A stretch of 64,000 nt of DNA from a virus, in the IMG/VR virus record IMGVR_UViG_3300021963_000029, positions 116,815 to 180,814 of that record; one strand, written 5' to 3'. Positions within the stretch are counted from its first letter, which is position 1, and each line of letters begins with the position of its first letter. Shown here one piece after another: positions 491 to 37,489 of this stretch. Both the position numbers and the translations under genes were made by a program. A model generated the notes under the pieces. The model was not told where the DNA came from and made no database searches. It was given only the letters and a program-made list of their open reading frames with translations.

Positions 491-550
491 GGCAATTTTT
501 TGCCAGAATTTTTTTCGCCCCTTTTTTGGAATTAAAGGTCAATTTTGAAA
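491..550. terminator. Convergent intergenic hairpin and T-tracts
   Basis: GGCAA-TTTT-TTGCC hairpin (491-504) followed by T-rich tracts between convergent genes. Confidence 0.4.
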
Positions 551-634
551 TAGGAGTGGGGAGACTTGAACTCCCACGACCTTAAGGTCAACAGATTTTA
601 AGTCTGGTGTGTCTACCGATTCCACCACACTCCC
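551..634 (-). tRNA. trnL: tRNA-Leu(UAA)
   Basis: GGGAGTG..CACTCCT-A acceptor, D arm GGTGGAATCGGTAGAC, CCAGA-CT-TAA-AA-TCTGT anticodon arm, long variable arm, GTTCAAGT T loop; no encoded CCA. Confidence 0.95.
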
Positions 635-706
635 AAGTGAGGACTTACCCAGCCTCAGGTTTCCCTTCACAGGCACGGTGCCTCTGCACTTCCTTCACAC
701 CTCAAC

Positions 707-735: not shown

Positions 736-902
736 CCCTCATAAGCAAGTTCACCCTTTAGTTCAGCAACCTTAGCAGTTGCAAAACACTCAACACAAGT
801 CCAGAAAGTTTCTCCACTTACCATATTTTCCTCACAAAAATGGGAAGCAACATCTTCAAGGATGCCATTGAGTTCATTGAGTTGGGTGCGATCAATCTGC
901 AT
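732..902 (-). CDS. Small acidic hypothetical protein (56 aa)
   Basis: MQIDRTQLNELNGILEDVASHFCEENMVSGETFWTCVECFATAKVAELKGELAYEG; downstream of promoter at 931-959. Confidence 0.7.
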   Translation of the reverse strand: MQIDRTQLNELNGILEDVASHFCEENMVSGETFWTCVECFATAKVAELKGELAYEG

Positions 903-930
903 GATAGGTAGGGGTCTTGCTTACCTATCC

Positions 931-959
931 ATCATAGCACTAGGAACAGCACTCTGCAA
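931..959 (-). promoter_or_regulatory. Sigma70-type promoter inside the 3' end of the S74 gene
   Basis: TTGCAG-17nt-TATGAT with TG extended -10. Confidence 0.55.
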
Positions 960-1638
960 GTTTGGTGGACAGTTCAGCAACTGTCTGCTTTAGATCTTCT
1001 ATTTGCTTTTGTTGTTCTTTGACTGCTTCTACTAAAGCTGCTGTTATATGGGGATAATTTAAAACTTTAGTTCCTTCTGAATTTACCTTTACTAAATCAG
1101 AAAAAACTTCTTCAACTTCTTGGGCAATAAATCCAATTTCATGCCATCCATAATCAACTCTATCATATTCTACTCCTTTTAATTTTAAAACTTTTTCCAA
1201 TGATTTTTCAAGTGGTTTAATATTTGTCTTTAGTTTAATGTCTGATGGACTCAATTGTACTGGAGTTCCATTTTGAGTCAATCCCCCAATAATATCCAAC
1301 TGTCCAAAGAACTTTCCTTGAGGAGATGCTGCATTCCAAGTGGGAGTTCCTTCAAACTTTTTGATGATAGCATCTGCTTTGACACCAAGGTCTCCCTTCA
1401 ATCCAAAAGATGTACTAGCACCAAACTTTAAGTGAGATCCAAAAGCATTGGAAAGACCAAATGCATTATGAGCACCAATTTGATTAGTCAATCCATTTAA
1501 ATTGTTGACTCCAAAAGATTGTAGAGCAAATGGTTTTGTTGGGTCTAAAGATTGCCATGCTTCAATGGTTGCTGTAGCAGGAGCAGCAGCAAGACCTGCT
1601 TGTATACCTTCTGTTTCTATTGAATTAATGTATGCCAT
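940..1638 (-). CDS. Tail/fibre protein with C-terminal intramolecular chaperone (peptidase S74) domain
   Basis: SDIKLKTNIKPL..LKGVEY..HEIGFIAQEVEEVF..YPHITAALVEAVKEQQKQIE motif. Confidence 0.85.
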   Translation of the reverse strand: MAYINSIETEGIQAGLAAAPATATIEAWQSLDPTKPFALQSFGVNNLNGLTNQIGAHNAFGLSNAFGSHLKFGASTSFGLKGDLGVKADAIIKKFEGTPTWNAASPQGKFFGQLDIIGGLTQNGTPVQLSPSDIKLKTNIKPLEKSLEKVLKLKGVEYDRVDYGWHEIGFIAQEVEEVFSDLVKVNSEGTKVLNYPHITAALVEAVKEQQKQIEDLKQTVAELSTKLAECCS

Positions 1639-2345
1639 TATAGACCTCCAAATACTACTGTTTCTATTAACTTATCTACAAACTCACCTAAACTAGTTGG
1701 GATTAGTGCAGACTTGGGTTCAATAATTGTAACTCCACCAGTTCCTTTCATATAGATTGGTCCTTTTGATGCTAAGATTAATTTATTTCTAGCACCAATA
1801 GCAACATTAGCTGCATTAATTCTTACACTATCCCCAGCTTCAATAATTATATTCTGAGCAGATCTGAATACAAATGCTTCATCTGCAGCAGTAGATTCAA
1901 ATCTAATTTCTCTTGCTGCTAAAGTTAAGATGCCATTACCAGCATCTATTCTTAAATTTTTCCCAGTACTCTTGATGTTTAATCCATCTTTTGCATTACT
2001 ATCAATGTTATCAGCAATGTCACATGGGTTGCTATGTAATTCAAACCCACCATCCTTGAATAGTTTTAGATGAGCACCAGATGTTGAGTGAAGTTCACAC
2101 TGTCTTAGTCTTCCTTTTTCTGTTGACTCACCAATGAAAAGAGTTCCATTTTGAGGATCACATAAAACATATCCTGATTTTTCTTCCTCTTCTGGTTTCT
2201 TAGGAGTTTCTGACTTGGGTTGCTTTGAAGTATCAGTAGTTCCTACTGCCTTATCTAAAGCAGTGGGTTTTGTATCATACCTGGGATCATAATTAGCTCT
2301 TGCATTTATATCCCTATCTCTAGGACTAATCTGTCTGGTTGCCAT
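1638..2345 (-). CDS. Baseplate/gp5 C-terminal-like beta-helix virion protein
   Basis: ELHSTSGAHLKL and repeated IxIxA beta repeats; directly downstream of gp5. Confidence 0.5.
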   Translation of the reverse strand: MATRQISPRDRDINARANYDPRYDTKPTALDKAVGTTDTSKQPKSETPKKPEEEEKSGYVLCDPQNGTLFIGESTEKGRLRQCELHSTSGAHLKLFKDGGFELHSNPCDIADNIDSNAKDGLNIKSTGKNLRIDAGNGILTLAAREIRFESTAADEAFVFRSAQNIIIEAGDSVRINAANVAIGARNKLILASKGPIYMKGTGGVTIIEPKSALIPTSLGEFVDKLIETVVFGGL

Positions 2346-4351
2346 TATCTATCAGCACAAAGAATTACTTTTTGAATTGGTCTTCTGTCTTCTGGAAGTT
2401 GACCAATCTCTACAAATTTAAGAACTGGTAACAGTATAGCACCTGATCCTGAATCTGTATTTATTACCAGTTTAGGAACAGTTCTGATGATACCTCCATT
2501 GACTATTTTAGTATCAATTATTCTACCATCAGGATCAACAACAGGGTAAATTTCTACACCAGTATCACAATAGAGATTGTAAATTAGATCTTCCTCTCTA
2601 TATCCAACTCCAGTGTTGATAATGATTACATCAGAAATATATGCAGTGTATTCTGTTCCATCATCTCCAACTGGATTTGTAGTGCAAGCATCACCTTCAG
2701 GAGAAACATATCCCATACCATTGCTATCCATGTAGACACTATCAATCTTCCCATCTTTAAGAATGACATTACCTCTAGCACCACCTCCAGTATTACATGC
2801 ATCTTCAAAGGTAACATAAGGAGCAGTAGTATAATTTGCACCAGGATCCTTGATGTTTACTCCCATGATTTGACCAAGAACATCCACAACAACTGCACCT
2901 GATCCACCACCTCCACCAAAACCACCAAAGAAAGTTACCTTTGGCAATCCACAGTTAAGAGTTGTGCCATCACAAGTTGCATAAGCAGCAAACTGTTCTT
3001 TAGTTAATCCTAGTTCAGCAAGAACATTATCACTTGGGGCACCTCCACTGTTTTGACCCAACCAACTTGCAAATTGTTTCTTGCCATCAGAGAATAGATT
3101 TCTTACTCCTTGAGCTGGTGAATAACTTAGTACCTTTTGGAAATTAACTGATCCTTTTGGAACATATCCCTTATTCATTTCATAATCAAATTCTTCCTTA
3201 CACTTTGCATCTTCACATGAGAAGAAAGAAAGAATTGTTTTTGCATAATTAATTGCCTTAGAAATGATCCCACTAACTTGTCCAATTCCCTGCCCTAAGA
3301 CTGAAGTTAGTTCTTGAATTGCAGGACCAATTGCTTTGCTGATTTCATTTCCAATGGTCTGCATCATGCTTCCAATGAATGACTCAACTGCACAAAGAGG
3401 AATTGCTACAACCTTTCCTACCATTTGTGCAAGGAAATCAAAGACAAAAGAAGAAATTTTCTTAAGGATATTTTGGAAAGTACACCAAATACCATCTACA
3501 ATTTTATCAGTTGCTAATTTCTTTGCAAGAATAGCATCCTTTGGTAATAGTTTTTCTATTATATTTTTTAGACCTTGATAGATCTGTTCTATAATAAAGT
3601 CTCTGGTCAGTTTAGTAAAATCTGCAAGTCCATCAGCAATAGCAGTGGTAGTTTCCTGAATTAATTCAGGAATATTTTGTATGAAATTTAGTGTTGGATT
3701 TACATAGATGTTAATATAGTTTTGAGCAGTATTCAAATAGTAGATAAACTTTCTAAGTGCTTGTGCAATCTTAGAAACTTTATCAGTTCCAGTTTTACAT
3801 GCAGAAACAGTTTGTACTACTGGTGCTGTTCCTGGTGCTGCTGCTGCTTGTTTTTGAGACTCCTTATTATCTGCAGTTCTTCCAGTTGATAGTGGAATAC
3901 CAGAGTCTTTTGGTTTAGTGCCATCAGCAGGTTTACTGGATGGATTAACTATCTGCTCTCCAGGTTTAAATGGTTTAAACCCATTTGTACCTAGGTCAAA
4001 AGTGTTTGGATGTTCAATGGATGCACCAGAGAATAATGCACCAATGATGACAGGTTGTTGCCCATCATCACCATCCATAAAGAATCCAACCACTGCTTCA
4101 GATCCTCTTGGGTTGAAGCTAGCACCAGATCCTCCTTCACCTGAACCAAAGTTCAAAGGAACTAGAACATGTGCCCAAGGTAGATCCTCATCCTTAACTA
4201 CACTTGAAGAATCAGGATGATGACCTATGATTCTAACCTTTGCCCTATATCCATTCTCAGTATTCTTGTACTTGGTAACTATACCAACAAACCATCTAAA
4301 GGAATCTCTTCCAATGAAATTAGGATTAATTAGGGATTGTTCTATTAGCAT
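2345..4351 (-). CDS. gp5: Baseplate hub/spike protein gp5-like (OB-fold N-terminus; no recognisable T4 lysozyme domain)
   Basis: FRWFVGIV..RAKVRIIGHH..DEDLPWAHV..VVGFFMDGDDGQQPVIIG. Confidence 0.85.
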   Translation of the reverse strand: MLIEQSLINPNFIGRDSFRWFVGIVTKYKNTENGYRAKVRIIGHHPDSSSVVKDEDLPWAHVLVPLNFGSGEGGSGASFNPRGSEAVVGFFMDGDDGQQPVIIGALFSGASIEHPNTFDLGTNGFKPFKPGEQIVNPSSKPADGTKPKDSGIPLSTGRTADNKESQKQAAAAPGTAPVVQTVSACKTGTDKVSKIAQALRKFIYYLNTAQNYINIYVNPTLNFIQNIPELIQETTTAIADGLADFTKLTRDFIIEQIYQGLKNIIEKLLPKDAILAKKLATDKIVDGIWCTFQNILKKISSFVFDFLAQMVGKVVAIPLCAVESFIGSMMQTIGNEISKAIGPAIQELTSVLGQGIGQVSGIISKAINYAKTILSFFSCEDAKCKEEFDYEMNKGYVPKGSVNFQKVLSYSPAQGVRNLFSDGKKQFASWLGQNSGGAPSDNVLAELGLTKEQFAAYATCDGTTLNCGLPKVTFFGGFGGGGGSGAVVVDVLGQIMGVNIKDPGANYTTAPYVTFEDACNTGGGARGNVILKDGKIDSVYMDSNGMGYVSPEGDACTTNPVGDDGTEYTAYISDVIIINTGVGYREEDLIYNLYCDTGVEIYPVVDPDGRIIDTKIVNGGIIRTVPKLVINTDSGSGAILLPVLKFVEIGQLPEDRRPIQKVILCADR

Positions 4352-4569
4352 CAGTCGTCGTACATCCTACACTCTAGTGCATTTGGATTTTCATCGCAGA
4401 ATAATTCAAGAGGAGATGGATCATGCTCATCATCTGGATGATTTGATGCATAAGATTCTAAAGATTCCAATTCATTTTCAATGTGTCTTCTTCTTTGGGA
4501 AGAAATCATTGGGTCAGAAAGTTCTGACTTATCTTTTTCTATGTGATCTTTGATGTTTTTAAATGTCAT
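4351..4569 (-). CDS. cp12: CP12 Calvin-cycle inhibitor (phage type, C-terminal Cys pair only)
   Basis: IKDHIEKD..RHIENELESL..HDPSPLELFCDENPNALECRMYDD. Confidence 0.9.
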   Translation of the reverse strand: MTFKNIKDHIEKDKSELSDPMISSQRRRHIENELESLESYASNHPDDEHDPSPLELFCDENPNALECRMYDD

Positions 4570-14340: not shown

Positions 14341-15111
14341 ATGACATACTTCAGAAACTTCTCAGAACTTCTATACCAATCACCACTATCAAATAGAACA
14401 TCTTCTTATGACTATGTAAGAGCAAAAAATATATTTCGTAGAGCAAAGATCAGAGAAGATATATTCCAAGCAGCAGTTGCATTTGATAAGTATAAAATTG
14501 TTGGAGAAGAAAGACCAGATCAAGTATCTAAAAAAGTCTATGGTAGTTCTGAATATGATTGGGTAATTTTATTATCCAATAACATCATTAACATCAGAGA
14601 AGAATGGCCTTTATCTGACTCTGAGTTTAATACTTACATAGCAACAAAGTATACTGCAGCAGAACTAGGAGCAGTTCATCACTATGAGACTGTTGCATAC
14701 TTTGATACAAGAGGAAAATTAATTGTCCCAGCTGGCAAAACAGTAGACTCTAATTTTAGTGTAACCTACTTTGACTATGATGTACAAGATCAAGAGATTG
14801 TTGGAGAACCATATACCTTTGATTCATCCACAACTAAATTTGATTCTAATCTAGTTAGATTTGATATGGATGAACAGATTGTAATAAGACAAGGAAAACC
14901 ATACACAATTAACCCAGTAAAATCAGTTAGTGTTTATGAGTATGAGATTGCTAAAAATGAAGAGAAGAGAACAATCTTTGTACTCAAACCAAGGTATCTA
15001 CAGACAATTATAGATGATCTAAATGAGATCATGAACTATGGATTCTCATCTCAGTATGTAGATAAGAAAACTAAAAAGGGAGATGAACTAAGAGTCATCT
15101 CCCCAAGATAA
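14341..15111 (+). CDS. gp53: Baseplate wedge subunit gp53
   Basis: MTYFRNF..ERPDQVSKKVYGSSEYDWVILLSNNIIN..EWPL..VHHYET. Confidence 0.9.
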   Translation: MTYFRNFSELLYQSPLSNRTSSYDYVRAKNIFRRAKIREDIFQAAVAFDKYKIVGEERPDQVSKKVYGSSEYDWVILLSNNIINIREEWPLSDSEFNTYIATKYTAAELGAVHHYETVAYFDTRGKLIVPAGKTVDSNFSVTYFDYDVQDQEIVGEPYTFDSSTTKFDSNLVRFDMDEQIVIRQGKPYTINPVKSVSVYEYEIAKNEEKRTIFVLKPRYLQTIIDDLNEIMNYGFSSQYVDKKTKKGDELRVISPR

Positions 15112-16032
15112 TCATTCTTCAGCCAGTCTCTGGAAGTAACTCAGAGCATCATCATCTTCATCATCAGAAGAGGATGAAGGACTTTGTTTTTGAGTCCCAC
15201 CATACTTTCCCTGCAGGACCTCTTCATTTGTAGGGACAGGACCACGATCCTCATCCTCATCATCAAATGATTCATCTTGCTTAGGAGCAACCTTCTTACC
15301 AAGAACTGCTTTCAGACGAGCATCAAGTTGCTCATAGGACTTAAAGGTTTCTGGTTTGACAAACTCTTGCAGAGAATAAGACTTCTTCCAGATTGCTTCA
15401 AGCACATCATCATCAAAGTCACCAAGCACAGAGGTTGATTCAAACTCAGACTTGTCATAGTTCCAGTAACCATCTTTCTTGGTGATCTTCACTTTGAAGT
15501 TAGCACCATTCCAGAAGTCAAAAGGATCAATGGGAGTCTCATCATCAAACTCAGGTTGCATTGCAGCAGAGATCTTATCAAAGATCTTCTTGCCATACTT
15601 GAACAGGAACACCTTACCTTCATTCTCAGGGTGTGCCTTGTCACTCACAACATAGATGTTGCTGTAGTAAGAAAGTTTACGCTTCCTTTGACGAACAATT
15701 TCTTGGTTTGCTTTGCTGCCAGTGTTCCACAGTTCACGATTTGCTTCACACACTGGGCACTGCTGACCAATGGTGGTGAGACAGTTATCAATGAACCAAC
15801 CACCAGTCCCTTGGAAGGCATGGTTGTACACCTTTGCCCAAGGAAGTTCTTCACCCTCAGGGGCAGGAAGGAATCGAATAACTGCAAATCCATTACCTGC
15901 TTTGTCCACTTCAGGTTTCCACAGACGATCATCAGTGGAACCACTTGAAGTATTCATCTTCTCTACTTCTTGTACCAGTTTAGAAGTCAGAGAACCAAGC
16001 TTGGATTGTTTTTTAAGATCGGCAAATGCCAT
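15112..16032 (-). CDS. gp32: Single-stranded DNA-binding protein gp32
   Basis: DDRLWK..GNGFAVIRFLP..CLTTIGQQCPVCE..FDFWNGANFKVK..NYDKSEF; acidic tail. Confidence 0.97.
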   Translation of the reverse strand: MAFADLKKQSKLGSLTSKLVQEVEKMNTSSGSTDDRLWKPEVDKAGNGFAVIRFLPAPEGEELPWAKVYNHAFQGTGGWFIDNCLTTIGQQCPVCEANRELWNTGSKANQEIVRQRKRKLSYYSNIYVVSDKAHPENEGKVFLFKYGKKIFDKISAAMQPEFDDETPIDPFDFWNGANFKVKITKKDGYWNYDKSEFESTSVLGDFDDDVLEAIWKKSYSLQEFVKPETFKSYEQLDARLKAVLGKKVAPKQDESFDDEDEDRGPVPTNEEVLQGKYGGTQKQSPSSSSDDEDDDALSYFQRLAEE

Positions 16033-20150: not shown

Positions 20151-20311
20151 TTTGCTTCCTCCCAATTCCAGTTATTGCATGGACGATAGGCAACACCACG
20201 ATACTTATTATGTGGATGTGCTGGTGCATGGGTCTCAGAATACCAATGTAGATATTCTTCTTTGGGTGCATCAGTATTATACTTGCACCCACGATATGTG
20301 GCTTGTGACAT
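20147..20311 (-). CDS. DUF4278-like peptide with two YRG motifs (54 aa)
   Basis: MSQATYRGCKY..NKYRGVAYRP; SD AAGGAG; below glutamine riboswitch. Confidence 0.8.
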   Translation of the reverse strand: MSQATYRGCKYNTDAPKEEYLHWYSETHAPAHPHNKYRGVAYRPCNNWNWEEAK

Positions 20312-20337
20312 GGATTTGCTCCTTTACTAATGTAAAA

Positions 20338-20396
20338 GTGCGTTCCTTCGGTATCCCTACTTCCGTTTGCTATTTGCAAATAGCAAATGAACGTGC
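20338..20396 (-). ncRNA. Glutamine riboswitch (glnA-motif type)
   Basis: CGTTCA-[TTTGCTATTTG/CAAATAGCAAA stem]-CGGAAGTAGG-GATA-CCGAAGGAACGC matches recalled glnA consensus. Confidence 0.8.
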
Positions 20397-20435
20397 TTTA
20401 TCTATAAGGATAATTTTGTAATTTTTGATACAGTT

Positions 20436-22508: not shown

Positions 22509-23774
22509 TTAAATTCTTACTGGATGTGGTCTACGTTTGTCTGATTTAACAGCACATAACCATGCTGTTGTTACTGCTATATTATCTTCCCACCAATTAG
22601 TTTCAAGTCTAAACTCTTGGAATCTAATTGTGGTGTTTCTAATAAATTGTGCTTTGTCTGCTCTGGTGTAATACCAGAAACTATTTTGATTCCAAAAACT
22701 CACATGGGTTGGATCTTGCCATGCTCCTCTACCATCAGTAGAAGGAACTTCAATGAATGCCCAACCACCATCACAAAGAACCCTGTGGATCTCACTCATT
22801 GATTTGACTGGATCCTTTAGGTGCTCAAGTACATGACTTGCATTGATAACACCAACACTATTATCTGGCAGAGGAATACCATCATTAAGATCACAAATAA
22901 TGTCAGCACCACACTGATCAATTGTCACATATCCTGGTCTTGGGAAAAGACCACCACCAATATCAACTTTCATCAGACCTTTTAGATCTGCATCTCTTTC
23001 TGCAAGAGCTTGTCCATATTGATGGAACAGTTCAAATGTTTTAATTTGAATGTCATCAATTCTTTCAGTTTGTGTGTTGTTGTTATCAGGAAGCCATCTA
23101 TAATAATATAGGATCTTATCAATGAAGTGAAACTTAGTATTCAAATAAGATCTAATTACTAATTCATGATCATCACAAATATTCAGATCAGGATTATGTC
23201 CACCAATCTGATGATAGAAACTGGTTCTCCATGCTCTTACATGATCAGGAGCATACCAAATAATACCAATACTATGACTAGTAGCAGGAAAACTGTCAAT
23301 CTTCATGAACTGTTCTCCTCTGAATTCCACCCACTTATGGGTCCACCCATTAGCAGCATTCCAAGGGATTTTATATTCATCCCCTCTCATATCATAAAGA
23401 AGATCTTCACTGTATGCAAATCCAACCTCAGGATCTTGGAAAGCATTATTAAGTTCTTCAAGACAATCTAAAGTCAACAGATCATCATGATCTACTTCAA
23501 CAAGAACATCTCCCCTTCCTAAAAAGAAAGCTTTGTTTTTAATAAACCCAACATTTGGATTAGTAATACCAGTGTGAATTCTAACCTTAGGGTGATCTCT
23601 AATTTCTTGAGGAATATGATGGAGTTTACAATCTCCATTTAAATACAAAACCCATTCCCAATTTTCATAGGTTTGGTCACGAATAGTTTCATACAATTCC
23701 AATAAGAAAGGCATGTTCTTAGAGCTATGCTCTGGTGTGATGATGCTAAATTTGTGATTAATCATATCAATCAA
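22509..23774 (-). CDS. GT2 glycosyltransferase fused to class I SAM methyltransferase
   Basis: SIITP..EVDHDD..DDHEL N-domain; DIGGG..INASHVLEHL..EIHRVLCDGG C-domain. Confidence 0.85.
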   Translation of the reverse strand: MIDMINHKFSIITPEHSSKNMPFLLELYETIRDQTYENWEWVLYLNGDCKLHHIPQEIRDHPKVRIHTGITNPNVGFIKNKAFFLGRGDVLVEVDHDDLLTLDCLEELNNAFQDPEVGFAYSEDLLYDMRGDEYKIPWNAANGWTHKWVEFRGEQFMKIDSFPATSHSIGIIWYAPDHVRAWRTSFYHQIGGHNPDLNICDDHELVIRSYLNTKFHFIDKILYYYRWLPDNNNTQTERIDDIQIKTFELFHQYGQALAERDADLKGLMKVDIGGGLFPRPGYVTIDQCGADIICDLNDGIPLPDNSVGVINASHVLEHLKDPVKSMSEIHRVLCDGGWAFIEVPSTDGRGAWQDPTHVSFWNQNSFWYYTRADKAQFIRNTTIRFQEFRLETNWWEDNIAVTTAWLCAVKSDKRRPHPVRI

Positions 23775-24348
23775 AAAAGAAAATGTGAAATAGTCTAGAG
23801 TCTTCTATCTGTGTCCCAAAGTATTCTGATGCAGCATGAATACATTTAGCATCAAATATAACCAACCTATTAAAAATATTCCCAACTACATCTACTAATC
23901 TAAATTTAGTTTTATCATAAAACCCACCAGTAAATGCTTGATCAGAGTTAGGATCTGATTCCTGTCTAGCCCCATTTTCATGAGCATAAAAAGATGTTCC
24001 ACACTGATATGGAGCATTAGGTGTTAAGTATACCATGCCAGCCCAGGTTTGTAAATCCCAGTGGTAAACTAAAGAATCTTGGGGAGTGCAGTATTGGAAC
24101 TTTCCACACATGCCATACTCTTCCCAAACTTTAAGTTTGGTTCCCATAATTGCTTCTATTGCTCTTTTTGTTCCTGGAACAAAATGTTGATCTATAGTTC
24201 TTCTACCTTTATACCATTCAGATTGATCTTCATATTGTTGCTGCAAAGCGTATTCTCTTACAGCATAAGGATCAGAATAAAAGTTATCAACTATCCAAAT
24301 CTTTTTATTGTATGATGGATTGACTGTACTATTTGTTAAGAACTTCAT
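23767..24348 (-). CDS. 2OG-Fe(II) oxygenase (DUF6445-like)
   Basis: IVDNFY..YHWD..WAGMVYLTP..FNRLVIF..HAAS..RLFHIFFFD. Confidence 0.8.
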   Translation of the reverse strand: MKFLTNSTVNPSYNKKIWIVDNFYSDPYAVREYALQQQYEDQSEWYKGRRTIDQHFVPGTKRAIEAIMGTKLKVWEEYGMCGKFQYCTPQDSLVYHWDLQTWAGMVYLTPNAPYQCGTSFYAHENGARQESDPNSDQAFTGGFYDKTKFRLVDVVGNIFNRLVIFDAKCIHAASEYFGTQIEDSRLFHIFFFD

Positions 24349-25483
24349 TATTATACCTCTCTATTTTTTCCATTGCTACATTCTTTAAATGCTCTAGGTA
24401 ATTTCCTGTATCATAATAACAGTTATTGTCAATCAAAAACATAAATTCAGGGAAAGGATTTTTTCTTTCTTCTGTTGTGATGTAGTTTAACATTCCTATG
24501 GCAGTTGTTGGATCATCCTGTTCCAAACAAATTTCAATTAATCTAACTAAATGTTCATTCCTTCTGGGACAAAACTTTCCAGCTCTATTAAAAAACTCAA
24601 TGGAAGTTTCTAAGTCTCCAAGTTCTTTAGAAACATGGGCACAAAGATACATGGCAAAATAACCAAATTCATCTATCCTAGTTGGAACAGAAGTTTCTCT
24701 ATATCCTTCATGGTTATGACAAACATATTCATAAAAATAATAGACTGCTCTTCTAGCATACTCTTCTTGTTGACTTTTTCCTAAAGGAAAATTGTTATAA
24801 AAATGGGCATCAAAATAACTCTTACCAACATACCAAAAATGATAGTTGTCTGTTAGTAATGTATTTTCTCTTATTAACTGCTCTTCTAATTTAAGAGCAT
24901 CACTTACATACTTTGTTGGACTAGAATAACTTTCACCATCATTAGTCCCTATGTGCCTGAAAGATTTAGGAAGATTAACTCTTTGGAAGTTCTCTCCAAT
25001 ACCATCAATCTCTAGAGAAATTGTTTCATGAATTAAATCATGATTAAATTTCCAAGGCATTCTGGAATTCCAAATCCATGCTCTGTAGTAGGTAATACCT
25101 GGAGCAATAGATGGGACATGAAAACTTTGAATGGAAGTATCATTAAAAATTGTCCAATCAAAATCATTATCAACTTCCATATATTCATCACAGTCCATTT
25201 TCATGATCCAATCACAACCATGGTCTGTCTTTAAGCATGTCTGTAATAGATGATCTCTATTCCATCCAAAGCTTACCCACCCCTCATCAACTTGATAGAT
25301 GAATCCTGGAACTGGGTGCTCTTCAAAAAAATCCCTAACAACTTCTGGGGTTCCATCTGTTGATCCATTGTCCTGAAATACCCAGTAATCAATATACTTA
25401 TAAGAAGATTCCAACATCCTGCGAATGGTTTTTGCCTCATTCTTGAACATTGTAATCATTACAATTTTAGTTGTCTTGTTCAT
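24329..25483 (-). CDS. GT2 glycosyltransferase with C-terminal TPR-like region
   Basis: MFKNEA..DNGSTDGT..FGWNR..MDCDE..IHE; helical C-terminus. Confidence 0.8.
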   Translation of the reverse strand: MNKTTKIVMITMFKNEAKTIRRMLESSYKYIDYWVFQDNGSTDGTPEVVRDFFEEHPVPGFIYQVDEGWVSFGWNRDHLLQTCLKTDHGCDWIMKMDCDEYMEVDNDFDWTIFNDTSIQSFHVPSIAPGITYYRAWIWNSRMPWKFNHDLIHETISLEIDGIGENFQRVNLPKSFRHIGTNDGESYSSPTKYVSDALKLEEQLIRENTLLTDNYHFWYVGKSYFDAHFYNNFPLGKSQQEEYARRAVYYFYEYVCHNHEGYRETSVPTRIDEFGYFAMYLCAHVSKELGDLETSIEFFNRAGKFCPRRNEHLVRLIEICLEQDDPTTAIGMLNYITTEERKNPFPEFMFLIDNNCYYDTGNYLEHLKNVAMEKIERYNNEVLNK

Positions 25484-26181
25484 GCAGATCTTCTCTCAAT
25501 TAATTCTAAGATTTCAGGATTGTATCTTTGATCACCATATGGAGAATACAATGCTCTCTTTCTTTCCTCTACATCAGGAGGTGGATCAGTCAAATAATAA
25601 AAAGCAATACTCTTTCTATACGCTCCTTCAGGACATGTTAATGGTTCTGGGAATCCATGCCATGATTTTTGAGTAGTATCAAAAAGAACTGCTCTATTAA
25701 ATACATTTTCTATGACAACTCTTTTGTCTTTTGGTCTATTAATTCTAGTATCATGTGTCCAAAGTTCTAGTCCACCTCCCCATTCAGGATTCCAATCTTC
25801 TGTTAAGTATAAAATTAAATTTAATTTTCTTTGAAGATTTAATTTTGGATGAAGAGAGTAGTCTAGATGCACATTTAGTTTACCACCTGTCCCATGAATA
25901 TGCCACCCAGCTCCATGTAATCCTATATCAGGGTAAAGACTTTTGATTCCAGTTAGGTCTTTAATCTTTTGTACAAATTCTGATGAAGCAAGATACATGA
26001 AGAACTGATATGTCTTAGGAGGAAACTCCCACCAGTCATTGCATGTTTTTTTATTCTCTAATGCATTGTCATAGCAATACCATTTAGGATAATTGTAATC
26101 CATGAACTCACTAGAAAGTTGTCTAGCAATTTCTACAGAAGTAAAATTATCAATTACCCAATAATCAAAAGGTTCTTTCAT
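25480..26181 (-). CDS. 2OG-Fe(II) oxygenase (prolyl 4-hydroxylase-like)
   Basis: LNVHLD..NLILYL..WGGGLELW..FNRAVLF..SWHG..RKSIAFYY. Confidence 0.85.
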   Translation of the reverse strand: MKEPFDYWVIDNFTSVEIARQLSSEFMDYNYPKWYCYDNALENKKTCNDWWEFPPKTYQFFMYLASSEFVQKIKDLTGIKSLYPDIGLHGAGWHIHGTGGKLNVHLDYSLHPKLNLQRKLNLILYLTEDWNPEWGGGLELWTHDTRINRPKDKRVVIENVFNRAVLFDTTQKSWHGFPEPLTCPEGAYRKSIAFYYLTDPPPDVEERKRALYSPYGDQRYNPEILELIERRSA

Positions 26182-26747
26182 CAGTATACTGTATTAAAGA
26201 AAAATGTTTGGAACAATCTACCACTGCTCATATCAGATCCAAAGTAATCTATAGAAGCATGATACAAACTTCCTGGATATAAGATCAATCTATTATATAC
26301 ATTCCCTATTCTATCAACTATTTCCCATTTAGTCATGTCATATGCATCTTCACCATGATCTTGATGCCCTACAGATCTCCTTTCACCAGATGCTTTATGT
26401 TTGTATAGTGCAGTACCACCACTTAGGGGAGCATCTGGAGTTAGATAACAAACCCCAGCCCACATATTATTATAATCAGAGTGGATCCAAGTCCTATCCA
26501 TTGATGTGCATAACTGAAATGCTCCAGTGTATCCATCTCCCTGTTCATTGAGTAACCAATCAGTTACTCCTCCTGCTGCATGAGATACTAAAGCATTAAT
26601 AACTTCCTTAAGACTATCATTAAGAAATGATTTTGTCCTAAGTCCAGGATAATTTCCTCTAACAGAAAACTCTTGGGATAAAGCAAATGCCCTTACATCA
26701 TCTGGATTATTATAAAAATCATCAGCAATAATAAGATTAACCTTCAT
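26181..26747 (-). CDS. 2OG-Fe(II) oxygenase (DUF6445-like), paralog of 23767-24348
   Basis: WIHSD..WAGVCYLTP..GT..YNRLILY..HAS..RLFQTFFF. Confidence 0.8.
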   Translation of the reverse strand: MKVNLIIADDFYNNPDDVRAFALSQEFSVRGNYPGLRTKSFLNDSLKEVINALVSHAAGGVTDWLLNEQGDGYTGAFQLCTSMDRTWIHSDYNNMWAGVCYLTPDAPLSGGTALYKHKASGERRSVGHQDHGEDAYDMTKWEIVDRIGNVYNRLILYPGSLYHASIDYFGSDMSSGRLFQTFFFNTVY

Positions 26748-27495
26748 TCCAATATGCTCCTGTTCTAGAACAATATTTTACATTAGGATCTATAGTTTTA
26801 AATCCTTCCCATCCAGGTTCTCCTTCTGCAACTCTCTTGCCATGAAAGTAATCACCAATATGATTGACCATCATGCCTCCTTCACTGGTCTTCAAAAGAC
26901 CAGCACCTAAACCATACTTTCCTGCAAGATACTGAGCAATAACAGACTCTGAAGGATTGTATCCTGTCTCTTCTAAGATAGGTTCTTTAGCAATCCATGC
27001 TGGATACAATGACATCAACATCCAAAAATATGGAGTTGCTTTTTCATATCTATAATTCTTAAAGATTACATCATCTTCTTTTGCACCAATATCTTCTGTC
27101 TCAAAAGTATACCAATTGTTTCTCTTCAATTGTATTTGAGAAAGAGTATTATCCTGTTGGAGAAGTTCAATCATATCCATTATTTTTAATGGATACATTA
27201 CTTCAACATCATCTTCATGATGAAAGATATAATCATAGTCTCTTTGTTTAACCAAATCAAAAAGTTCTTGCCAGGTTTTTGTAATACCTTGATTTTGTTC
27301 ATGGAAAATAACTTCATTGTATCCATGAGATATTACAAATTCTGCCAGAGATTCATTGTCTCTACCAATAGGATAATCATCAATAAAAAGATGATGTACA
27401 TCCAATCCACTAAAGTCTAACTTTTTGTTTGCATCAAATGTTTTCTTAAGGAACTCTACCCTATTGGTAGAGAAAACTACATGAAGTAATTTCAT
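26737..27495 (-). CDS. GT-A fold glycosyltransferase
   Basis: IDD..YDYIFHHEDD. Confidence 0.65.
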   Translation of the reverse strand: MKLLHVVFSTNRVEFLKKTFDANKKLDFSGLDVHHLFIDDYPIGRDNESLAEFVISHGYNEVIFHEQNQGITKTWQELFDLVKQRDYDYIFHHEDDVEVMYPLKIMDMIELLQQDNTLSQIQLKRNNWYTFETEDIGAKEDDVIFKNYRYEKATPYFWMLMSLYPAWIAKEPILEETGYNPSESVIAQYLAGKYGLGAGLLKTSEGGMMVNHIGDYFHGKRVAEGEPGWEGFKTIDPNVKYCSRTGAYWNEG

Positions 27496-27665
27496 TGGGA
27501 TTCCATACTATCTGTATTATGTATCTTGATATTATTGTGCTTCCTCGCACAAATACCACGTGCATATGCACGTGTCATGCTGTTCAAATTAGAGCATGGT
27601 TGTTGAGATTCTCCACAGTAAGGACAAACTGATTCCTTTGGATCATCATACTTAAACTTGGTCAT
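27492..27665 (-). CDS. Small Cys-containing hypothetical protein (57 aa)
   Basis: MTKFKYDDPKESVCPYCGESQQPC..GICARKH; ATGA-coupled at both ends. Confidence 0.6.
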   Translation of the reverse strand: MTKFKYDDPKESVCPYCGESQQPCSNLNSMTRAYARGICARKHNNIKIHNTDSMESQ

Positions 27666-27991
27666 ACTACAACAGGTTGTCCTTCACCTTCTGGAAGACT
27701 AATTTGTGGAAGTTTATTTCCTCTACCCCTTAAATTCCAAGGATCAACACCCTCTGGAATTGGATCATCCCACTTACCACCCAAATCAACAATCTCATTT
27801 GTTGGTAATGCTTTAGGAACTTCAACATCAATCACTGGACTCATGAGTGTTTTGTTTTTTACAACTTCACGATTTGGCGTGTCCAGTCTCATCACCATTT
27901 TTGCATCTTCAAAACTACCACAATCACAAATTTTTTTATGAGTTCTTCTTTCTCTTACTGTGAAATAATCTTCACTGTTGTACTTGTTCAT
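27662..27991 (-). CDS. Hypothetical protein
   Basis: 109-aa ORF after promoter at 28011-28039. Confidence 0.7.
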   Translation of the reverse strand: MNKYNSEDYFTVRERRTHKKICDCGSFEDAKMVMRLDTPNREVVKNKTLMSPVIDVEVPKALPTNEIVDLGGKWDDPIPEGVDPWNLRGRGNKLPQISLPEGEGQPVVV

Positions 27992-28100
27992 CTTCCTGTT
28001 CTTTTTCTTTATTATAGAGTGGTTGTGGTTTCCTGTAAAGGTTAGGCCAGGTATCCCTGATAATTTCTGCTAGTTTGTAAGGTGTTTCTGAAGTAATCAT
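27972..28100 (-). CDS. Small hypothetical ORF downstream of psbD (42 aa)
   Basis: MITSETPYKLAEIIRDTWPNLYRKP..; contains the next promoter. Confidence 0.45.
   Translation of the reverse strand: MITSETPYKLAEIIRDTWPNLYRKPQPLYNKEKEQEDEQVQQ
28011..28039 (-). promoter_or_regulatory. Sigma70-type promoter
   Basis: TTTACA-17nt-TATAAT. Confidence 0.7.
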
Positions 28101-28107
28101 ATCGACT

Positions 28108-28130
28108 AAAAAGGGGGTGAACCCACCCCC
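28108..28130 (-). terminator. Intrinsic terminator after psbD
   Basis: GGGGGTG-GGTT-CACCCCC-TTTT. Confidence 0.8.
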
Positions 28131-28142
28131 ATCTTGAGTAGT

Positions 28143-29204
28143 TTACAGAGCATTGCCTCTTGGCAACACTTCCTCTGGGAACACAAAGTTCTCATGAGGT
28201 TGATCTACAGGTGCCATCCAAGCACGTAGACCTTCATTAAGCAAAATGTTCTTAGTATAGAAGGTTTCAAACTCTGGATCCTCTGCTGCTCTAATCTCCT
28301 GACTCACAAAATCATAAGCACGAAGATTAAGGGCAAGACCAATGATACCAATACTGGAAGTCCAAAGACCCATGACAGGTACAAAGAGCATAAAGAAATG
28401 AAGCCAACGCTTGTTACTAAAAGCAATCCCAAAGATCTGCGACCAGAATCTGTTTGCAGTGACCATAGAATAAGTTTCTTCTTCCTGCGTAGGCTCAAAA
28501 GCCTTAAAAGTGTTTGCTTGTTCACTATCTTCAAATAGAGTGTTTTCTACAGTAGCTCCATGAATTGCACAGAGCAGTGCTCCACCCAGTATACCAGCAA
28601 CTCCCATCATATGGAAGGGGTTGAGGGTCCAGTTGTGGAAACCCTGAAGGAACAGAAGGAACCTGAAGATCGCAGCAACACCAAAAGAAGGTGCAAAGAA
28701 CCAACTAGACTGTCCCAGTGGATACATCAGAAATACTGAGACAAACACTGCAATAGGACCAGAGAAAGCAATAGCATTATAAGGTCTAATACCTACAAGT
28801 CTTGCAATTTCAAATTGCCTAAGCATGAATCCAATCAAACTAAAGGCCCCATGGAGTGCCACAAAAGGCCAGAGTCCCCCAAGTTGGAACCACCTGACGA
28901 TATCCCCTTGAGCCTCAGGACCCCAGAGCAGAAGAAGAGAATGACCCATAGAATCTGCTGGAGTAGAAACTGCTGCAGTAAGAAAGTTTGCACCCTCAAG
29001 ATAGCTGGACGCAAGACCATGAGTGTACCAACTCGTAACGAAAGTTGTCCCAGTAAGCCAACCACCAAGAGCAAGGTAAGCAGTGGGAAAAAGAAGAAGT
29101 CCAGACCAGCCAACAAAAACGAAACGATCTCTTTTAAGCCAGTCATCAAGTACATCAAACCATCCTCTCTGTGAAATTGGTTGTGAAAGTGTAGATGAAA
29201 CCAT
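28143..29204 (-). CDS. psbD: Photosystem II D2 protein
   Basis: [35 protein letters not shown], uninterrupted 353 aa. Confidence 0.99.
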
Positions 29205-29220
29205 TAATACCTCCGAAATA

Positions 29221-29240
29221 AAAAGGGGTCCTAAGACCCC
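29221..29240 (-). terminator. Intrinsic terminator after psbA
   Basis: GGGGTC-TTAG-GACCCC-TTTT. Confidence 0.8.
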
Positions 29241-29263
29241 AATTTGTAGTTTTGTTTATTGTA

Positions 29264-30343
29264 TCAACCAATTGCAGGTGCAGTGAGAGCAACAGGAGTT
29301 GCTTCAGAAGCAGCAAGGTCAAGAGGGAAGTTGTGAGCATTTCTTTCATGCATTACTTCCATACCCAGACCAGCACGATTGAGGACATCTGCCCAAGTGT
29401 TAATCACTTTACCTTGAGAATCAACAATAGACTGGTTGAAGTTGAAACCATTGAGGTTGAATGCCATGGTGCTAACACCAAGAGCAGTGAACCAAATGCC
29501 AACTACAGGCCATGCAGCAAGGAAGAAGTGAAGTGAACGAGAGTTGTTGAATGATGCATACTGGAAGATCAGACGACCAAAGTATCCATGAGCAGCAACA
29601 ATGTTATAGGTCTCTTCTTCTTGACCAAACTTGTAACCATAGTTCTGTGACTCATTCTCAGTGGTTTCACGAACCAGTGAAGAGGTTACCAGAGAACCAT
29701 GCATAGCAGAGAACAGAGAACCACCAAACACACCAGCAACTCCAAGCATATGGAAGGGGTGCATCAGGATGTTATGTTCTGCCTGGAACACAAGCATGTA
29801 GTTGAAAGTACCAGAAATACCCAGAGGCATTGCATCAGAGAAAGAACCCTGACCAAAAGGATACACCAGGAACACTGCAGAAGCAGCAGCAACAGGTGCA
29901 GAGTAAGCAACACAGATCCAAGGACGCATACCAAGTCTGTAAGAAAGTTCCCACTCACGACCCATGTAAGCATAGATACCAATCAGGAAGTGGAACACAA
30001 CCAGTTGGAAAGGTCCACCATTGTAGAGCCACTCATCAAGAGAAGCAGCTTCCCAAATGGGGTAAAAGTGCAGTCCAATAGCATTGGAGGAAGGAATTAC
30101 AGCACCAGAAATAATGTTGTTTCCATACATGAGAGAACCAGCAACTGGTTCACGAATACCATCAATGTCTACAGGAGGTGCAGCAATAAAAGCAACAATA
30201 AAGCAAATTGTTGCAGCAAGCAGACAGGGGATCATCAGAACCCCAAACCAACCTACATATAGGCGATTGTCTGTTGAAGTAACCCAGTTACAGAATTGAT
30301 CCCAGGTGTTAGTAGATTGTCTTTGAGCAATTGTAGCAGTCAT
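29264..30343 (-). CDS. psbA: Photosystem II D1 protein (Gln130 form)
   Basis: [31 protein letters not shown], uninterrupted 359 aa. Confidence 0.99.
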
Positions 30344-30345
30344 TT

Positions 30346-30462
30346 TTATTAAAAGAAAGTAAAACCATCAGGGAAATGGTGGAGTTACTATTCCCCAGTC
30401 ACCCTCAGACTGGGTATGAGAGACTGTGTTTTACCTCCCCATAGGTCTCGGTTAGGAAGAGG
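30346..30462 (-). ncRNA. PhotoRC-II-like structured psbA leader RNA
   Basis: CCGAGAC..GTCTCTCATA, CCCAGTC-TGAGGGT-GACTGGG and CCACCATTTCCCTGATGG elements; position 5' of psbA. Confidence 0.7.
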
Positions 30463-30503
30463 GCAACTGTTAAGAACTTGTTACATTCCTTAACTTGTTG
30501 ATA

Positions 30504-30537
30504 TATTTATCATACCAGACCTCTTCAAACATGTCAA
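30504..30537 (-). promoter_or_regulatory. Composite psbA promoter (sigma70 + late)
   Basis: TTGACA-17nt-TATGAT with overlapping ATAAATA. Confidence 0.75.
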
Positions 30538-30540
30538 GGC

Positions 30541-30548
30541 AATAAATA
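30541..30548 (+). promoter_or_regulatory. T4-type late promoter (divergent from psbA)
   Basis: AATAAATA. Confidence 0.6.
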
Positions 30549-30571
30549 CAGGAGTAGCATAAGGATGTCTG

Positions 30572-30688
30572 ATGGCTAAGTCAGCTAACAAAGGTAAGAA
30601 GGGTAGTGCAGGTTCTGCAAACAATAAGAAGCAGAACTCAGGGAATGCTACTGCTAAGAAAGCAAAGAATGGCGGCAAGAAAAAATGA
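30572..30688 (+). CDS. Lys/Ala/Gly/Asn-rich basic peptide (38 aa)
   Basis: MAKSANKGKKGSAGSANNKKQNSGNATAKKAKNGGKKK; after late promoter, SD AAGGA. Confidence 0.7.
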   Translation: MAKSANKGKKGSAGSANNKKQNSGNATAKKAKNGGKKK

Positions 30689-30864
30689 TTGAATTGGTTG
30701 CCTTCATGATTGTTGGTTATGTTGAGACTAGTCCTGGGCAATGTCAAATTGATTATTGGAGATATAATGACATTCATTCACTTACTGTCCCATGCCACGA
30801 GAATGGAACACTCCAAAGAGGGAGTGTTGGAATGCTCCCATCCATCAAATACTTAAAGCCATAG
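30685..30864 (+). CDS. Small hypothetical protein (59 aa)
   Basis: MIELVAFMIVGYVETSPGQCQIDY..PC..; ATGA-coupled; overlaps next ORF by 73 nt. Confidence 0.5.
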   Translation: MIELVAFMIVGYVETSPGQCQIDYWRYNDIHSLTVPCHENGTLQRGSVGMLPSIKYLKP

Positions 30865-30983
30865 ACAACCACACAAGATTGTGGATGGAGACTGGTGATT
30901 ACTGGCATGAAGAACAAGCACAGATATTAAGAAAATATGTAAAAGATCTAAAAGTTTGGATCCATAGGCAAGAAGGAAAATAA
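30792..30983 (+). CDS. Conserved cyanophage hypothetical protein
   Basis: MPREWNTP..WNAPIHQILKAIDNH.. Confidence 0.65.
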   Translation: MPREWNTPKRECWNAPIHQILKAIDNHTRLWMETGDYWHEEQAQILRKYVKDLKVWIHRQEGK

Positions 30984-31016
30984 GATAAATAGTTGGCAAG
31001 AACTATACATAAGAAA

Positions 31017-31463
31017 ATGAAAAGACTTCTACTAGCCTTTTCGTTATTCTTTATCACCCCTGTAAGTGCTGCTGAAATTACATCAAGAATAACTGACTCT
31101 GTACAACTTAAGGTTGATGCTGCTGCTTCACAAGCATTAAGAGTAGGTGGACAATACTCAGTTTCTGGCACTAATATTCAATCCTCTACATTTGGTGGTG
31201 TAGGTGGTGCTGGCACATATTCAGTTAACACTGCTGGTCAAGCATTTACTTTCTCTGAAAGTTTAATTGAAGCAGATACTACACCTGCATCAGTGTCTAC
31301 TGGAGCAATTGCCCCCTATGGAAATATTACCTCTACTGCTGCTGGTTCTGCTGGAAGCCTTGCTGGTACTCTGTCTGGGACAGGGGTTCCTACAGTAACT
31401 GCTGGTGGTGCTGGTACAACAGCAACAGGTCAAAGATCTATTGAATTAAGCGTATTTAAATGA
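31017..31463 (+). CDS. Exported beta-rich protein with signal peptide
   Basis: MKRLLLAFSLFFITPVSA-AEIT signal; late motif ATAAATA at 30985. Confidence 0.75.
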   Translation: MKRLLLAFSLFFITPVSAAEITSRITDSVQLKVDAAASQALRVGGQYSVSGTNIQSSTFGGVGGAGTYSVNTAGQAFTFSESLIEADTTPASVSTGAIAPYGNITSTAAGSAGSLAGTLSGTGVPTVTAGGAGTTATGQRSIELSVFK

Positions 31464-31825
31464 GACTTATAACTCCTGCTCTGCTTACAGCAGCAGGAGT
31501 CATTTGTACTCCTGTTTATGCTGAGAGTGTTGTACCAAACTTCACCAGAGGAACCATCACTGCAACCACAGAAACAACAACAAAAGTTATAGAATCCATT
31601 CGTCAAGTTGAATATACAACTGGCACATCATACACTGTAACTGGCACCAACATTAACATTCCTAGTAATCCACAACCAGGAGCGAACTACACCATCATGA
31701 ACCAAGGTGCTCCATTCCAGTTCAGTGAAACCTATCTAGGACCTGGAGTGGCAAAAGAAACATGGATAGATCGCACCACAGAAAGTCAATCAGTTACAAA
31801 CTCTGTATCTGTCTTTACTCAATGA
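31460..31825 (+). CDS. Exported beta-rich protein with signal peptide (paralog of previous)
   Basis: MRLITPALLTAAGVICTPVYA-ES; shared Y[ST]V[ST]GTNI and F[TQ]FSE motifs. Confidence 0.75.
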   Translation: MRLITPALLTAAGVICTPVYAESVVPNFTRGTITATTETTTKVIESIRQVEYTTGTSYTVTGTNINIPSNPQPGANYTIMNQGAPFQFSETYLGPGVAKETWIDRTTESQSVTNSVSVFTQ

Positions 31826-32307: not shown

Positions 32308-32315
32308 AATTAAAA

Positions 32316-32486
32316 ATGTTTATAGCAAAAAGAATTGCTTTCATGAATGAAGTTTTGTACTTTGAAGAAGATACAAAATGGACTCCAGATAGATCAAAAG
32401 CAAAACAATTTAATACTAAAAAAGAAGCAATTAAAGAATCTGATAGAGCAGGTCTTTATGAAATTGTATTAGAGGAAGTAAAATGA
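32316..32486 (+). CDS. Small hypothetical protein (56 aa)
   Basis: MFIAKRIAFMNEVLYFEEDTKWTPDRSKAKQF..; CTAAATA at 32300; ATGA-coupled. Confidence 0.55.
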   Translation: MFIAKRIAFMNEVLYFEEDTKWTPDRSKAKQFNTKKEAIKESDRAGLYEIVLEEVK

Positions 32487-33153: not shown

Positions 33154-33180
33154 ATAATATTATTAAAGACTACAATATTA

Positions 33181-35732: not shown

Positions 35733-35763
35733 TCTATGAATGAAGTTTCCTCTATATTTAGGA

Positions 35764-37395: not shown

Positions 37396-37482
37396 AAAAA
37401 TACAGTGGTGTTGGTTATTGTGATTCTCTAGAATCTACAAAGACCAACCCACTGTGGAGTGGTTCAACTCAATGGTTGAAAC

Positions 37483-37489
37483 TATTTAG
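37483..37489 (-). promoter_or_regulatory. T4-type late promoter
   Basis: CTAAATA immediately after the lysozyme stop. Confidence 0.55.

Follow-up and report, generated by a model that had tools for sequence, protein, structure and literature searches.

Several described systems come close to the one presented here. Genomes with CG-specific C5 methyltransferases, as cited in PMC11282364, are strongly depleted in the dinucleotide CG (CpG) and have TG and CA in excess, and the accepted cause is the deamination of 5-methylcytosine (5mC). In phage genomes, the avoidance of restriction sites removes short words synonymously. In the rotifer Adineta vaga, the N4-cytosine methyltransferase N4CMT (8S9M/8S9N/8S9O; PMC8885841, PMC10406627) marks transposons in chromatin; it has been shown by experiment to be CpG-specific and acts on both strands, preferring ACG, methylating ACGT, GCGC and ACGC symmetrically and disfavouring ACGG and a 5' T (PMC10406627). 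CpG loss in the rotifer is neither sought nor reported in the accessible parts of these papers (PMC8885841, PMC10406627). N4CMT has been placed among phage methyltransferases of unknown target specificity, in an alignment that lists P-TIM68 (YP_009213669.1), S-CAM22 and S-RIM12 (PMC8885841). The subject here is a stretch of 64,000 bp (the window in what follows), the last 64 kb of the 180,814-bp IMG/VR virus record IMGVR_UViG_3300021963_000029, which is rated 100% complete. A long CG-free stretch near the start of this window is the local face of a genome-wide and lineage-wide purge of CpG in a group of T4-like cyanomyoviruses, carried out by synonymous recoding. In every case examined, the purge goes along with a single phage gene, whose product is closely related to the CG-specific N4CMT. 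A literature search did not find CpG loss reported for cyanophages or for P-TIM68.

In the window there are 252 CG where base composition predicts 2165 (observed/expected ratio, o/e, 0.116; 37.0% G+C), while GC, CA and TG stand at 0.89, 1.32 and 1.25. A first-pass annotation, made from the letters, had reported that CG is missing from 1-515 and from 891-4355, that GC, CA and TG are common in the latter, and that base composition is an insufficient explanation, and the counts bear this out. The first CG is at 516, and between the CGs at 889 and 4356 there is none against 114.6 expected, with GC occurring 117 times, CA 280 times and TG 247 times. An even longer run, the longest of the window and absent from that annotation, spans 4016 bp where 112 CG are expected. 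The features concerned are:

891-4355, no strand: CG-free run over three tail/baseplate open reading frames (ORFs) including gp5
2345-4351, minus strand: gp5 baseplate hub and tail lysozyme, 668 amino acids (aa), 0 CG against 67 expected
45840-49855, no strand: CG-free run inside a block of overlapping ORFs of 210-320 aa on the minus strand

The CG gaps exceed those of uniform scatter even at the depleted rate (3e-4 and 3e-5, multiplied by 252 gaps), and therefore the structural and glycosyltransferase genes are the hardest purged. The whole record has 673 CG (o/e 0.115), each 5-kb window lies between 0.04 and 0.21, and TpG (1.27) and CpA (1.31) are in excess.

The phage is a T4-like cyanomyovirus (Kyanoviridae), with T4-type core genes (gp5, gp32, ThyX, a collagen-like gene, gp44, gp62, nrdA/B and gp41) next to psbA/psbD, and with synteny to DSL-LC03 and P-TIM68. 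Ordinary relatives were taken to be 80 IMG/VR contigs recovered with NrdA as the marker, from the following gene:

58816-61128, minus strand: nrdA, 16 CG, o/e 0.20, used for sampling the relatives and for a tree

The CpG o/e of these contigs has a median of 0.59 and a range of 0.25-0.76, and among named phages it is 0.48 in DSL-LC03, 0.53 in S-CRM01, 0.59 in S-SRM01, 0.57 in S-PM2 and 0.44 in P-HM1. The comparison with typical cyanomyoviruses had been set beforehand as the one that could overturn the claim, and it places the present phage about 5 times lower. With gp5 as the query the picture is different: all 17 of 17 IMG/VR contigs with a related gp5 (54-85% identity) have a CpG o/e of 0.03-0.10, and among the isolates of the phage collection there was no gp5 of more than 35% identity. 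In two syntenic contigs of greater length (65 and 85 kb) the o/e is 0.142 and 0.112, with the same regional pattern as in this phage. The residual CpGs of the gp5-related group are mostly private, with 173 of 189 CG-bearing columns having CG in less than 30% of the sequences and 2 being fixed. Gene by gene, CpG retention rises with similarity to CpG-normal phages (Spearman 0.50, p 5e-4, n=44), which fits incoming DNA that is purged over time, or tighter codon constraint. There are also T4-like contigs (L189-L191, L198, L225-L239) with an intermediate CpG o/e of 0.24-0.35.

The purge acts at the level of the dinucleotide and not at particular sites. All 16 NCGN words are depleted to an o/e of 0.04-0.16 (6- to 25-fold), and the 26 tetramers that are most changed against the pooled relatives every one contain CG. 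The 225 ORFs from a crude call span 93% of the genome; in them, CpG reaches an o/e of 0.165 at codon positions 1-2, 0.086 at positions 2-3 and 0.12 at codon junctions, against 0.20 in non-coding DNA. A codon-controlled count had been proposed by the first-pass annotation; when it was run, with synonymous shuffles within genes, 258 junction CpGs were seen against 1914 +/- 29. Codons ending in C are chosen in 2.6% of cases ahead of a codon starting with G, compared to 24-34% elsewhere. Arginine (Arg) codons are to 90% AGR, and the share of NCG codons in their families is 0.5-1.4%, with GTG, GGG and CTG at about 10%. In 80 conserved Arg columns, relatives use CGN in 58% and this phage in 15 of the 80, and in the columns where CGN is the majority, AGR is found in this phage in 38 of 51. 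For the replacement of CpG against relatives, synonymous sites are saturated and a clean reading comes from psbA only, where 24 of 25 conserved NNC-G junctions have become NNT-G, and of 12 conserved Arg codons of the CGN type 8 remain. With typical cyanomyoviruses at about 0.59 and an o/e of 0.80-0.90 in candidate hosts, the loss is not explained by composition, by codon usage or by mimicry of the host.

The gene that goes with the purge lies outside the window, about 5.6 kb from nrdA if the ends of the record are joined:

genome 2675-3445, minus strand, outside the window: beta-class SPPY DNA methyltransferase, 256 aa, PF01555

The protein matches N6_N4_Mtase (PF01555) with 110.8 bits against a curated cut-off of 26.7, over profile positions 1-221. 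Its best PDB match is the rotifer N4CMT (8S9M; E 2.2e-45, 158 bits, residues 8-227), followed by CcrM at 9.5e-15. Motif IV reads TSPPYNK and aligns with the TSPPYNK of 8S9M, so that it is of the SPPY and not of the DPPY type; by the published rule, SPPY stands for N4-cytosine and DPPY for N6-adenine (PMC8885841). The motifs TSPPYNK, HPAPFP and DPxxGSGTT are common to both enzymes. The phage protein differs in being a bare catalytic domain without a chromodomain. The P-TIM68 orthologue falls into the N4CMT cluster of the published alignment (PMC8885841). From this likeness we infer that the phage enzyme methylates CpG, giving N4-methylcytosine. Within its neighbourhood, no gene is better conserved than the methyltransferase: its median identity is 92.5%, against 51-85% for its neighbours. 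A promoter scan upstream of it gave one sigma-70-like site with an extended -10, overall no better than shuffles. A separate observation concerns S-CAM22, a CpG-normal phage with a paralogue of 40% identity: at 24000-44000 (L345), CCGG is wholly absent in 20 kb, which hints at the paralogue or the hosts acting on CCGG.

Orthologues of 75-99% identity were found in 80 IMG/VR contigs, and all of these have a CpG o/e of 0.12-0.37 (median 0.21). For a comparison of presence and absence, loci were used that cover the slot, i.e. the interval flanked by a MazG-like and a cytidylyltransferase-like gene. Here, the 63 loci with the gene are at 0.118-0.360 and the 35 without it at 0.457-0.724, with zero overlap, so that in 98 slot-covered loci there is neither a purge without the gene nor the gene without a purge. 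The only isolate with an orthologue is P-TIM68 (NC_028955.1, genus Haifavirus), whose gp157 (79% identity) sits in the same MazG-cytidylyltransferase slot. Its genome has 630 CG in 197,361 bp, an o/e of 0.111 compared to 0.115 here. In structure, P-TIM68 is of another lineage (its gp5 is 25% identical to that of this phage); its host is a marine high-light Prochlorococcus, and photosystem I genes are present in its genome. On a gp41 tree, presence of the methyltransferase takes 3 changes, of which 2 or more are forced. The nrdA tree, with 106 rows, shows the purged state in scattered places; 7 changes are needed there, and supported branches force at least 6 of them. Given these forced changes, and the gp5 identity of 25% with P-TIM68, the trait follows the methyltransferase gene and not the ancestry of the neighbouring core genes. 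Other shared genes did not offer a similar candidate. One shared with P-TIM68, g_66568_67320 (phrog_1574), is widespread in CpG-normal phages, and Pfam searches with ten further clade-conserved ORFs gave a CobS-like AAA_5, a PNKP-type phosphatase and no DNA-modifying family; the CpG-normal sample in this gene-content comparison consisted of the nrdA and gp5 neighbourhoods. For five purged or intermediate contigs (L196, L209, L189, L190 and L227) the records are 6-25% complete, and absence of the methyltransferase from them is uninformative.

The strength of the purge depends on the bases next to the CG. Between 1.30 Mb of sequence with the gene and 1.21 Mb without it, the ratios of CpG (with/without gene) are as follows:

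ACGT, GCGC and ACGC/GCGT: 0.43-0.52
ACGA/TCGT and GCGA/TCGC: 0.37-0.39
ACGG/CCGT and CCGC/GCGG: 0.18
TCGA, CCGG and CCGA/TCGG: 0.12-0.17

Grouped, RCGY stands at 0.43-0.52 and YCGR plus any CCG at 0.12-0.18, and the purge is stronger the more strands have the CpG cytosine after a pyrimidine. Such a grading is as expected for a site that is read by a protein with flank preferences, and three readings of it fit. The kept sites may be those that an N4CMT-like enzyme would methylate fully, with methylation protecting them. A methylated cytosine after a pyrimidine may instead give rise to cyclobutane dimers; in an N4-methylated model compound such dimers are long-lived and block synthesis (PMC3919605). 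Finally, the pattern fits modification-dependent nucleases that prefer a methylated CG between a pyrimidine and a purine (pyrimidine-mCG-purine). EcoKMcrA has this preference. Restriction of CG-modified DNA in E. coli is also a topic among the references of PMC12707154.

It is probable, with a good deal of room for doubt, that the phage's own N4-cytosine methyltransferase of the CpG type is behind the selection against CpG, either as its cause or as a trait co-adapted with it. The enzyme would methylate the CpGs of the phage DNA and so turn each CpG into a costly site, and selection would then strip CpG wherever a synonymous alternative is available. What is left over would be found in tRNAs, in arginine codons of the form CGT, and in genes shared with CpG-normal phages in the recent past. 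As for the cost, the leading version, still tentative, is that N4-methylated CpG itself harms the phage, either as a target of modification-dependent nucleases of the McrA/Mrr/McrBC kind or through long-lived, replication-blocking photoproducts where the methylated cytosine follows a pyrimidine. Nearly as likely, and itself doubtful, is the reverse: methylation would guard against a CG-reading nuclease, and the sites that cannot be methylated completely would be purged. Several points weigh against the methyltransferase as the source of the selection, or against one version of it. The least purged contexts (ACGT, GCGC, ACGC) are those which the rotifer enzyme methylates on both strands; this speaks more for the protective than for the harmful version, unless harm needs a 5' pyrimidine. 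Measured against non-palindromic CG words, CG palindromes are avoided equally with and without the gene, and therefore no relaxation of restriction avoidance is visible. If methylated CpG is a cost, the high conservation of the gene would call for some compensating benefit. Specificity and product of the enzyme rest on a homologue with 158 bits of similarity, and paralogues of about 40% identity are found in phages with normal CpG (S-CAM22, 0.67; LR756501, 0.89), so that specificity does change within the methyltransferase family. The contigs of intermediate CpG (0.24-0.35; L189-191, L225-239) are too fragmentary for scoring the methyltransferase. Since the genomes are mosaic, the counts of independent events are uncertain. 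The association also has no direction: the gene may be tolerated solely in CpG-poor genomes, or a third factor may stand behind both.

The rival that survives best, unlikely as it is, is avoidance driven by the host: CG-containing restriction or defence targets would be removed from the phage genome, and the methyltransferase would be an independent anti-restriction device in the same lineages. Classical avoidance does exist here, since in a maximal-order Markov model the non-CG palindrome GCATGC occurs 0 times against 14 expected and GGTACC once against 11, and AGGCCT and GGGCCC are absent; relatives without the gene already avoid CCGG (0.24), GCGC (0.30) and CGCG (0.25). For CG itself the pattern is another one. 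Depletion confined to specific words of 4-6 bp was found for GCATGC, GGTACC, GGCC and RGCY only, whereas bare CG is purged in every one of its 16 flank contexts, and this purge tracks a phage gene, inseparably in the 98 slot-covered loci, and not an identified host enzyme. Phages without the gene that grow on similar hosts have a CpG o/e of 0.44-0.6, namely P-HM1 on high-light Prochlorococcus and DSL-LC03, S-CRM01 and S-SRM01 on freshwater Synechococcus. In 355 kb of picocyanobacterial loci, CG palindromes are not markedly avoided, with the exception of CGCG (0.70). The first-pass annotation had proposed selection against CG-containing host restriction targets. Selection as the mode has held, given the change of Arg CGN to AGR, the use of all synonymous routes, the undepleted hosts and the missing C5 enzyme; no specific host target has emerged, with every NCGN context affected. 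An independent observation on words is that GpC is kept almost solely as TGC/GCA, with RGCY, GGCC and AGCT at an o/e of 0.12-0.33 here; the deficit of about 0.3 (0.29-0.30) in ordinary cyanomyoviruses makes this a family-wide trait that is unrelated to the CpG purge.

Loss by mutation is rather improbable. Here, methylation of CpG by phage or host would make it hypermutable, and CpG would be lost to TpG/CpA in the way known from vertebrates and Mollicutes. The whole-record excess of TpG and CpA given above agrees with this, as TG/CA of 1.286 compared to 1.155 in relatives roughly balances the extra CpG deficit, which is the balance that 5mC decay predicts, and the mostly private residual CpGs speak for a fast turnover. 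However, the excess does not discriminate, because C to T is the sole synonymous exit from an NNC-G junction, and it is equally expected under selection. A search of the complete phage record with PF00145 gave no C5 cytosine methyltransferase, while control genomes were matched, and the linked enzyme has the N4-type SPPY motif. No deamination of N4-methylcytosine to thymine is known. Another expectation of 5mC decay, that CGN is kept at conserved Arg, is not borne out either. The candidate hosts, in which a C5 enzyme could also reside, are undepleted, and non-coding DNA (0.20) is less depleted than synonymous sites (0.09-0.12). The change from CGN to AGR at conserved Arg needs a C-to-A transversion and is therefore not a product of deamination. 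A hypermutable codon at an essential site brings a mutational load, which could itself be selected against in very large populations; the Arg test therefore counts against simple decay and not against all mutational models. Polarisation of CpG gains and losses within the clade gave too few losses for a spectrum. The missing C5 methyltransferase and the recoding of Arg CGN to AGR make selection a likelier mode of loss than 5mC deamination. The phage thus differs from the genomes with C5-type decay in having no C5 enzyme, in the N4 (SPPY) type of the enzyme, in the carrier being a lytic phage and in recoding Arg by transversions. Of the earlier proposal of CG methylation followed by deamination, the methylation is probably right, judging from a CpG-type methyltransferase that tracks the loss perfectly; for deamination to thymine an N4-type SPPY enzyme has no established route, and the genome is without a C5 enzyme.

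Also improbable is a CG-directed weapon of the phage, i.e. a nuclease that would cut unmethylated CG-rich DNA of hosts or competitors, with the methyltransferase shielding the phage and the loss of CpG limiting self-cutting. This would account for a purge that depends on a phage gene and not on the host, for the keeping of the contexts that are best methylated by an N4CMT-type enzyme, and for the strong conservation of the gene, and the candidate hosts have about 25 times as much CpG per base as the phage. No nuclease partner was found, though. A candidate for such a partner is the neighbour of the methyltransferase:

genome 3477-4754, minus strand: 425-aa protein (phrog_1462), upstream neighbour of the methyltransferase; 2201-3478 in L241

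It has invariant residues (D116, W118, D122, S176-L-K178, E250 and E262), matches no Pfam or NCBIfam family, and phrog_1462 is of unknown function. Its AlphaFold model (pLDDT 86.6) gave nothing at E <= 0.001 in a Foldseek search against the PDB, and the best hit of VIA-align (Z 6.5) concerns the N-terminal helices only, with residues 172-425 barely covered. About 10 of the 63 methyltransferase loci lack this neighbour, and CpG-normal phages have full-length homologues of it (23-24% identity).

Mimicry of the host or adaptation to its codons, in which the phage would take over the dinucleotide composition of its host as phages tend to do with CpG content in a published survey (PMC11282364), is refuted for the sampled hosts and can practically be dismissed, since 80 cyanobacterial loci have a CpG o/e of 0.65-1.26 (none below 0.65), a host-type psbA has been recoded from 58-92 CG to 8, and the same purge is seen in a freshwater-type phage and a Prochlorococcus phage.

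The psbA protein is 93-95% identical to that of Cyanobium/Synechococcus, where these loci have 55-71% G+C and a CpG o/e of 0.80-0.90; the gene of phage DSL-LC03 has 47 CG. A locus labelled as a Gammaproteobacteria metagenome-assembled genome (L128, NYUL01000008.1) has a psbA that is 94% identical to that of the phage, with 39% G+C and a CpG o/e of 0.60, and it looks like a cyanophage contig that was binned into a bacterial genome. Further features of the window in which CG counts are of interest are:

550-635, minus strand: tRNA-Leu(TAA), 2 CG
28143-29204, minus strand: psbD, 12 CG (o/e 0.23) against 38 in DSL-LC03
29264-30343, minus strand: psbA, 8 CG
33519-34778: collagen-like gene, 4 CG against 64 expected
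53298-53371, minus strand: tRNA-Ile(TAT), 1 CG
54959-55029, minus strand: tRNA-Gly(TCC), 3 CG

The first-pass annotation had seen about three CG in the collagen-like gene, which is right for the low count and off by one in number. It had also placed the remaining CGs mainly in tRNAs, psbA/psbD, gp32 and thyX. For the tRNAs this is correct, with 21 CG in the 919 bases of 12 phage tRNAs, a density about 6 times that of the genome; psbA/psbD, gp32 and thyX have 8-12 CG each (o/e 0.15-0.31), still far below their relatives, and 3 of the 225 ORFs are significantly above the genome mean. The 12 tRNA genes, of which 3 are in the window and the others at genome 72963-86685, are all for A-ending codons (anticodons TGT, TGC, TGG, TGA, TAC, TAG, TAA, TAT and TCC), with tRNA-Arg(TCT) present in two copies. 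This set matches AGA and the NCA codons, which are the replacements of CGN and NCG. The highest CpG density of the window is found at 20179-20421 (7 CG, o/e 0.74), which reads as an 80-aa ORF on the plus strand, is 76% conserved in a related contig, and could represent a structured RNA, or DNA that was acquired recently. Two adjacent endolysin-like genes (38176-38847 and 37490-38161) encode proteins 89-98% identical to those of CpG-normal phages. Their DNA is 89% and 84% identical to that of L012 and L051, and their higher CpG (o/e 0.37 and 0.23) is consistent with a recent exchange.

Other methyltransferase and related genes are present. The first-pass annotation had suggested a link of the CpG loss to the methyltransferase, 2OG-oxygenase and glycosyltransferase (GT) genes inside the window, which form the following cassette:

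22509-27495, minus strand: GT2-methyltransferase fusion, DUF6445, GT2, P4H-like 2OG oxygenase, DUF6445 and GT2, by domain matches

This link has been abandoned. The cassette was rejected as the cause of the purge, as it holds enzymes of the sugar/protein type, and no set for modifying DNA, with homologues in CpG-normal phages such as S-CRM01 and S-SSM7: the fusion partner of GT2 is a Methyltransf_11/23 domain with a 55% homologue in S-CRM01, and DUF6445 homologues are common in CpG-normal marine phages. A search with Tet_JBP (PF12851) gave no match in the phage, and control genomes were likewise without a match; the Dam family PF05869 gave none either. Outside the window, an HNH_3 endonuclease and a D12 Dam methyltransferase (14678-15505) are inserted between gp44 and gp62 (genome 13951-15505), and P-TIM68 has a methyltransferase in the same gp44-gp62 place. 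GATC is over-represented (o/e 1.35).

The findings give CpG as the predicted target for a family of cyanophage methyltransferases that was listed in 2022 as of unknown specificity, and no closer relatives are known than these phage enzymes for the one animal N4-cytosine methyltransferase characterised so far. A CpG loss of about 90%, usually taken as the scar of 5mC deamination, can accompany an N4-type enzyme and recoding beyond deamination; therefore the loss of a dinucleotide in a virus is not automatically restriction avoidance or 5mC decay. With P-TIM68 on Prochlorococcus MIT9515 there is a cultured member, which makes the question directly testable, and a CpG o/e below 0.4 can serve as a genomic marker that flags carriage of the gene in metagenomic cyanophage contigs. 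It would be a bold claim, and one with a small chance of being right in full, that widespread marine and freshwater cyanomyoviruses N4-methylate their CpG and have nearly CpG-free genomes for this reason, and, in the strongest version, that the methyltransferase is one half of a phage weapon or belongs to a scheme of self/non-self marking. If true, this would be CpG depletion without 5-methylcytosine, and in the strongest version CG-rich DNA of hosts or competitors would be attacked or disabled while the CG-poor phage escapes.

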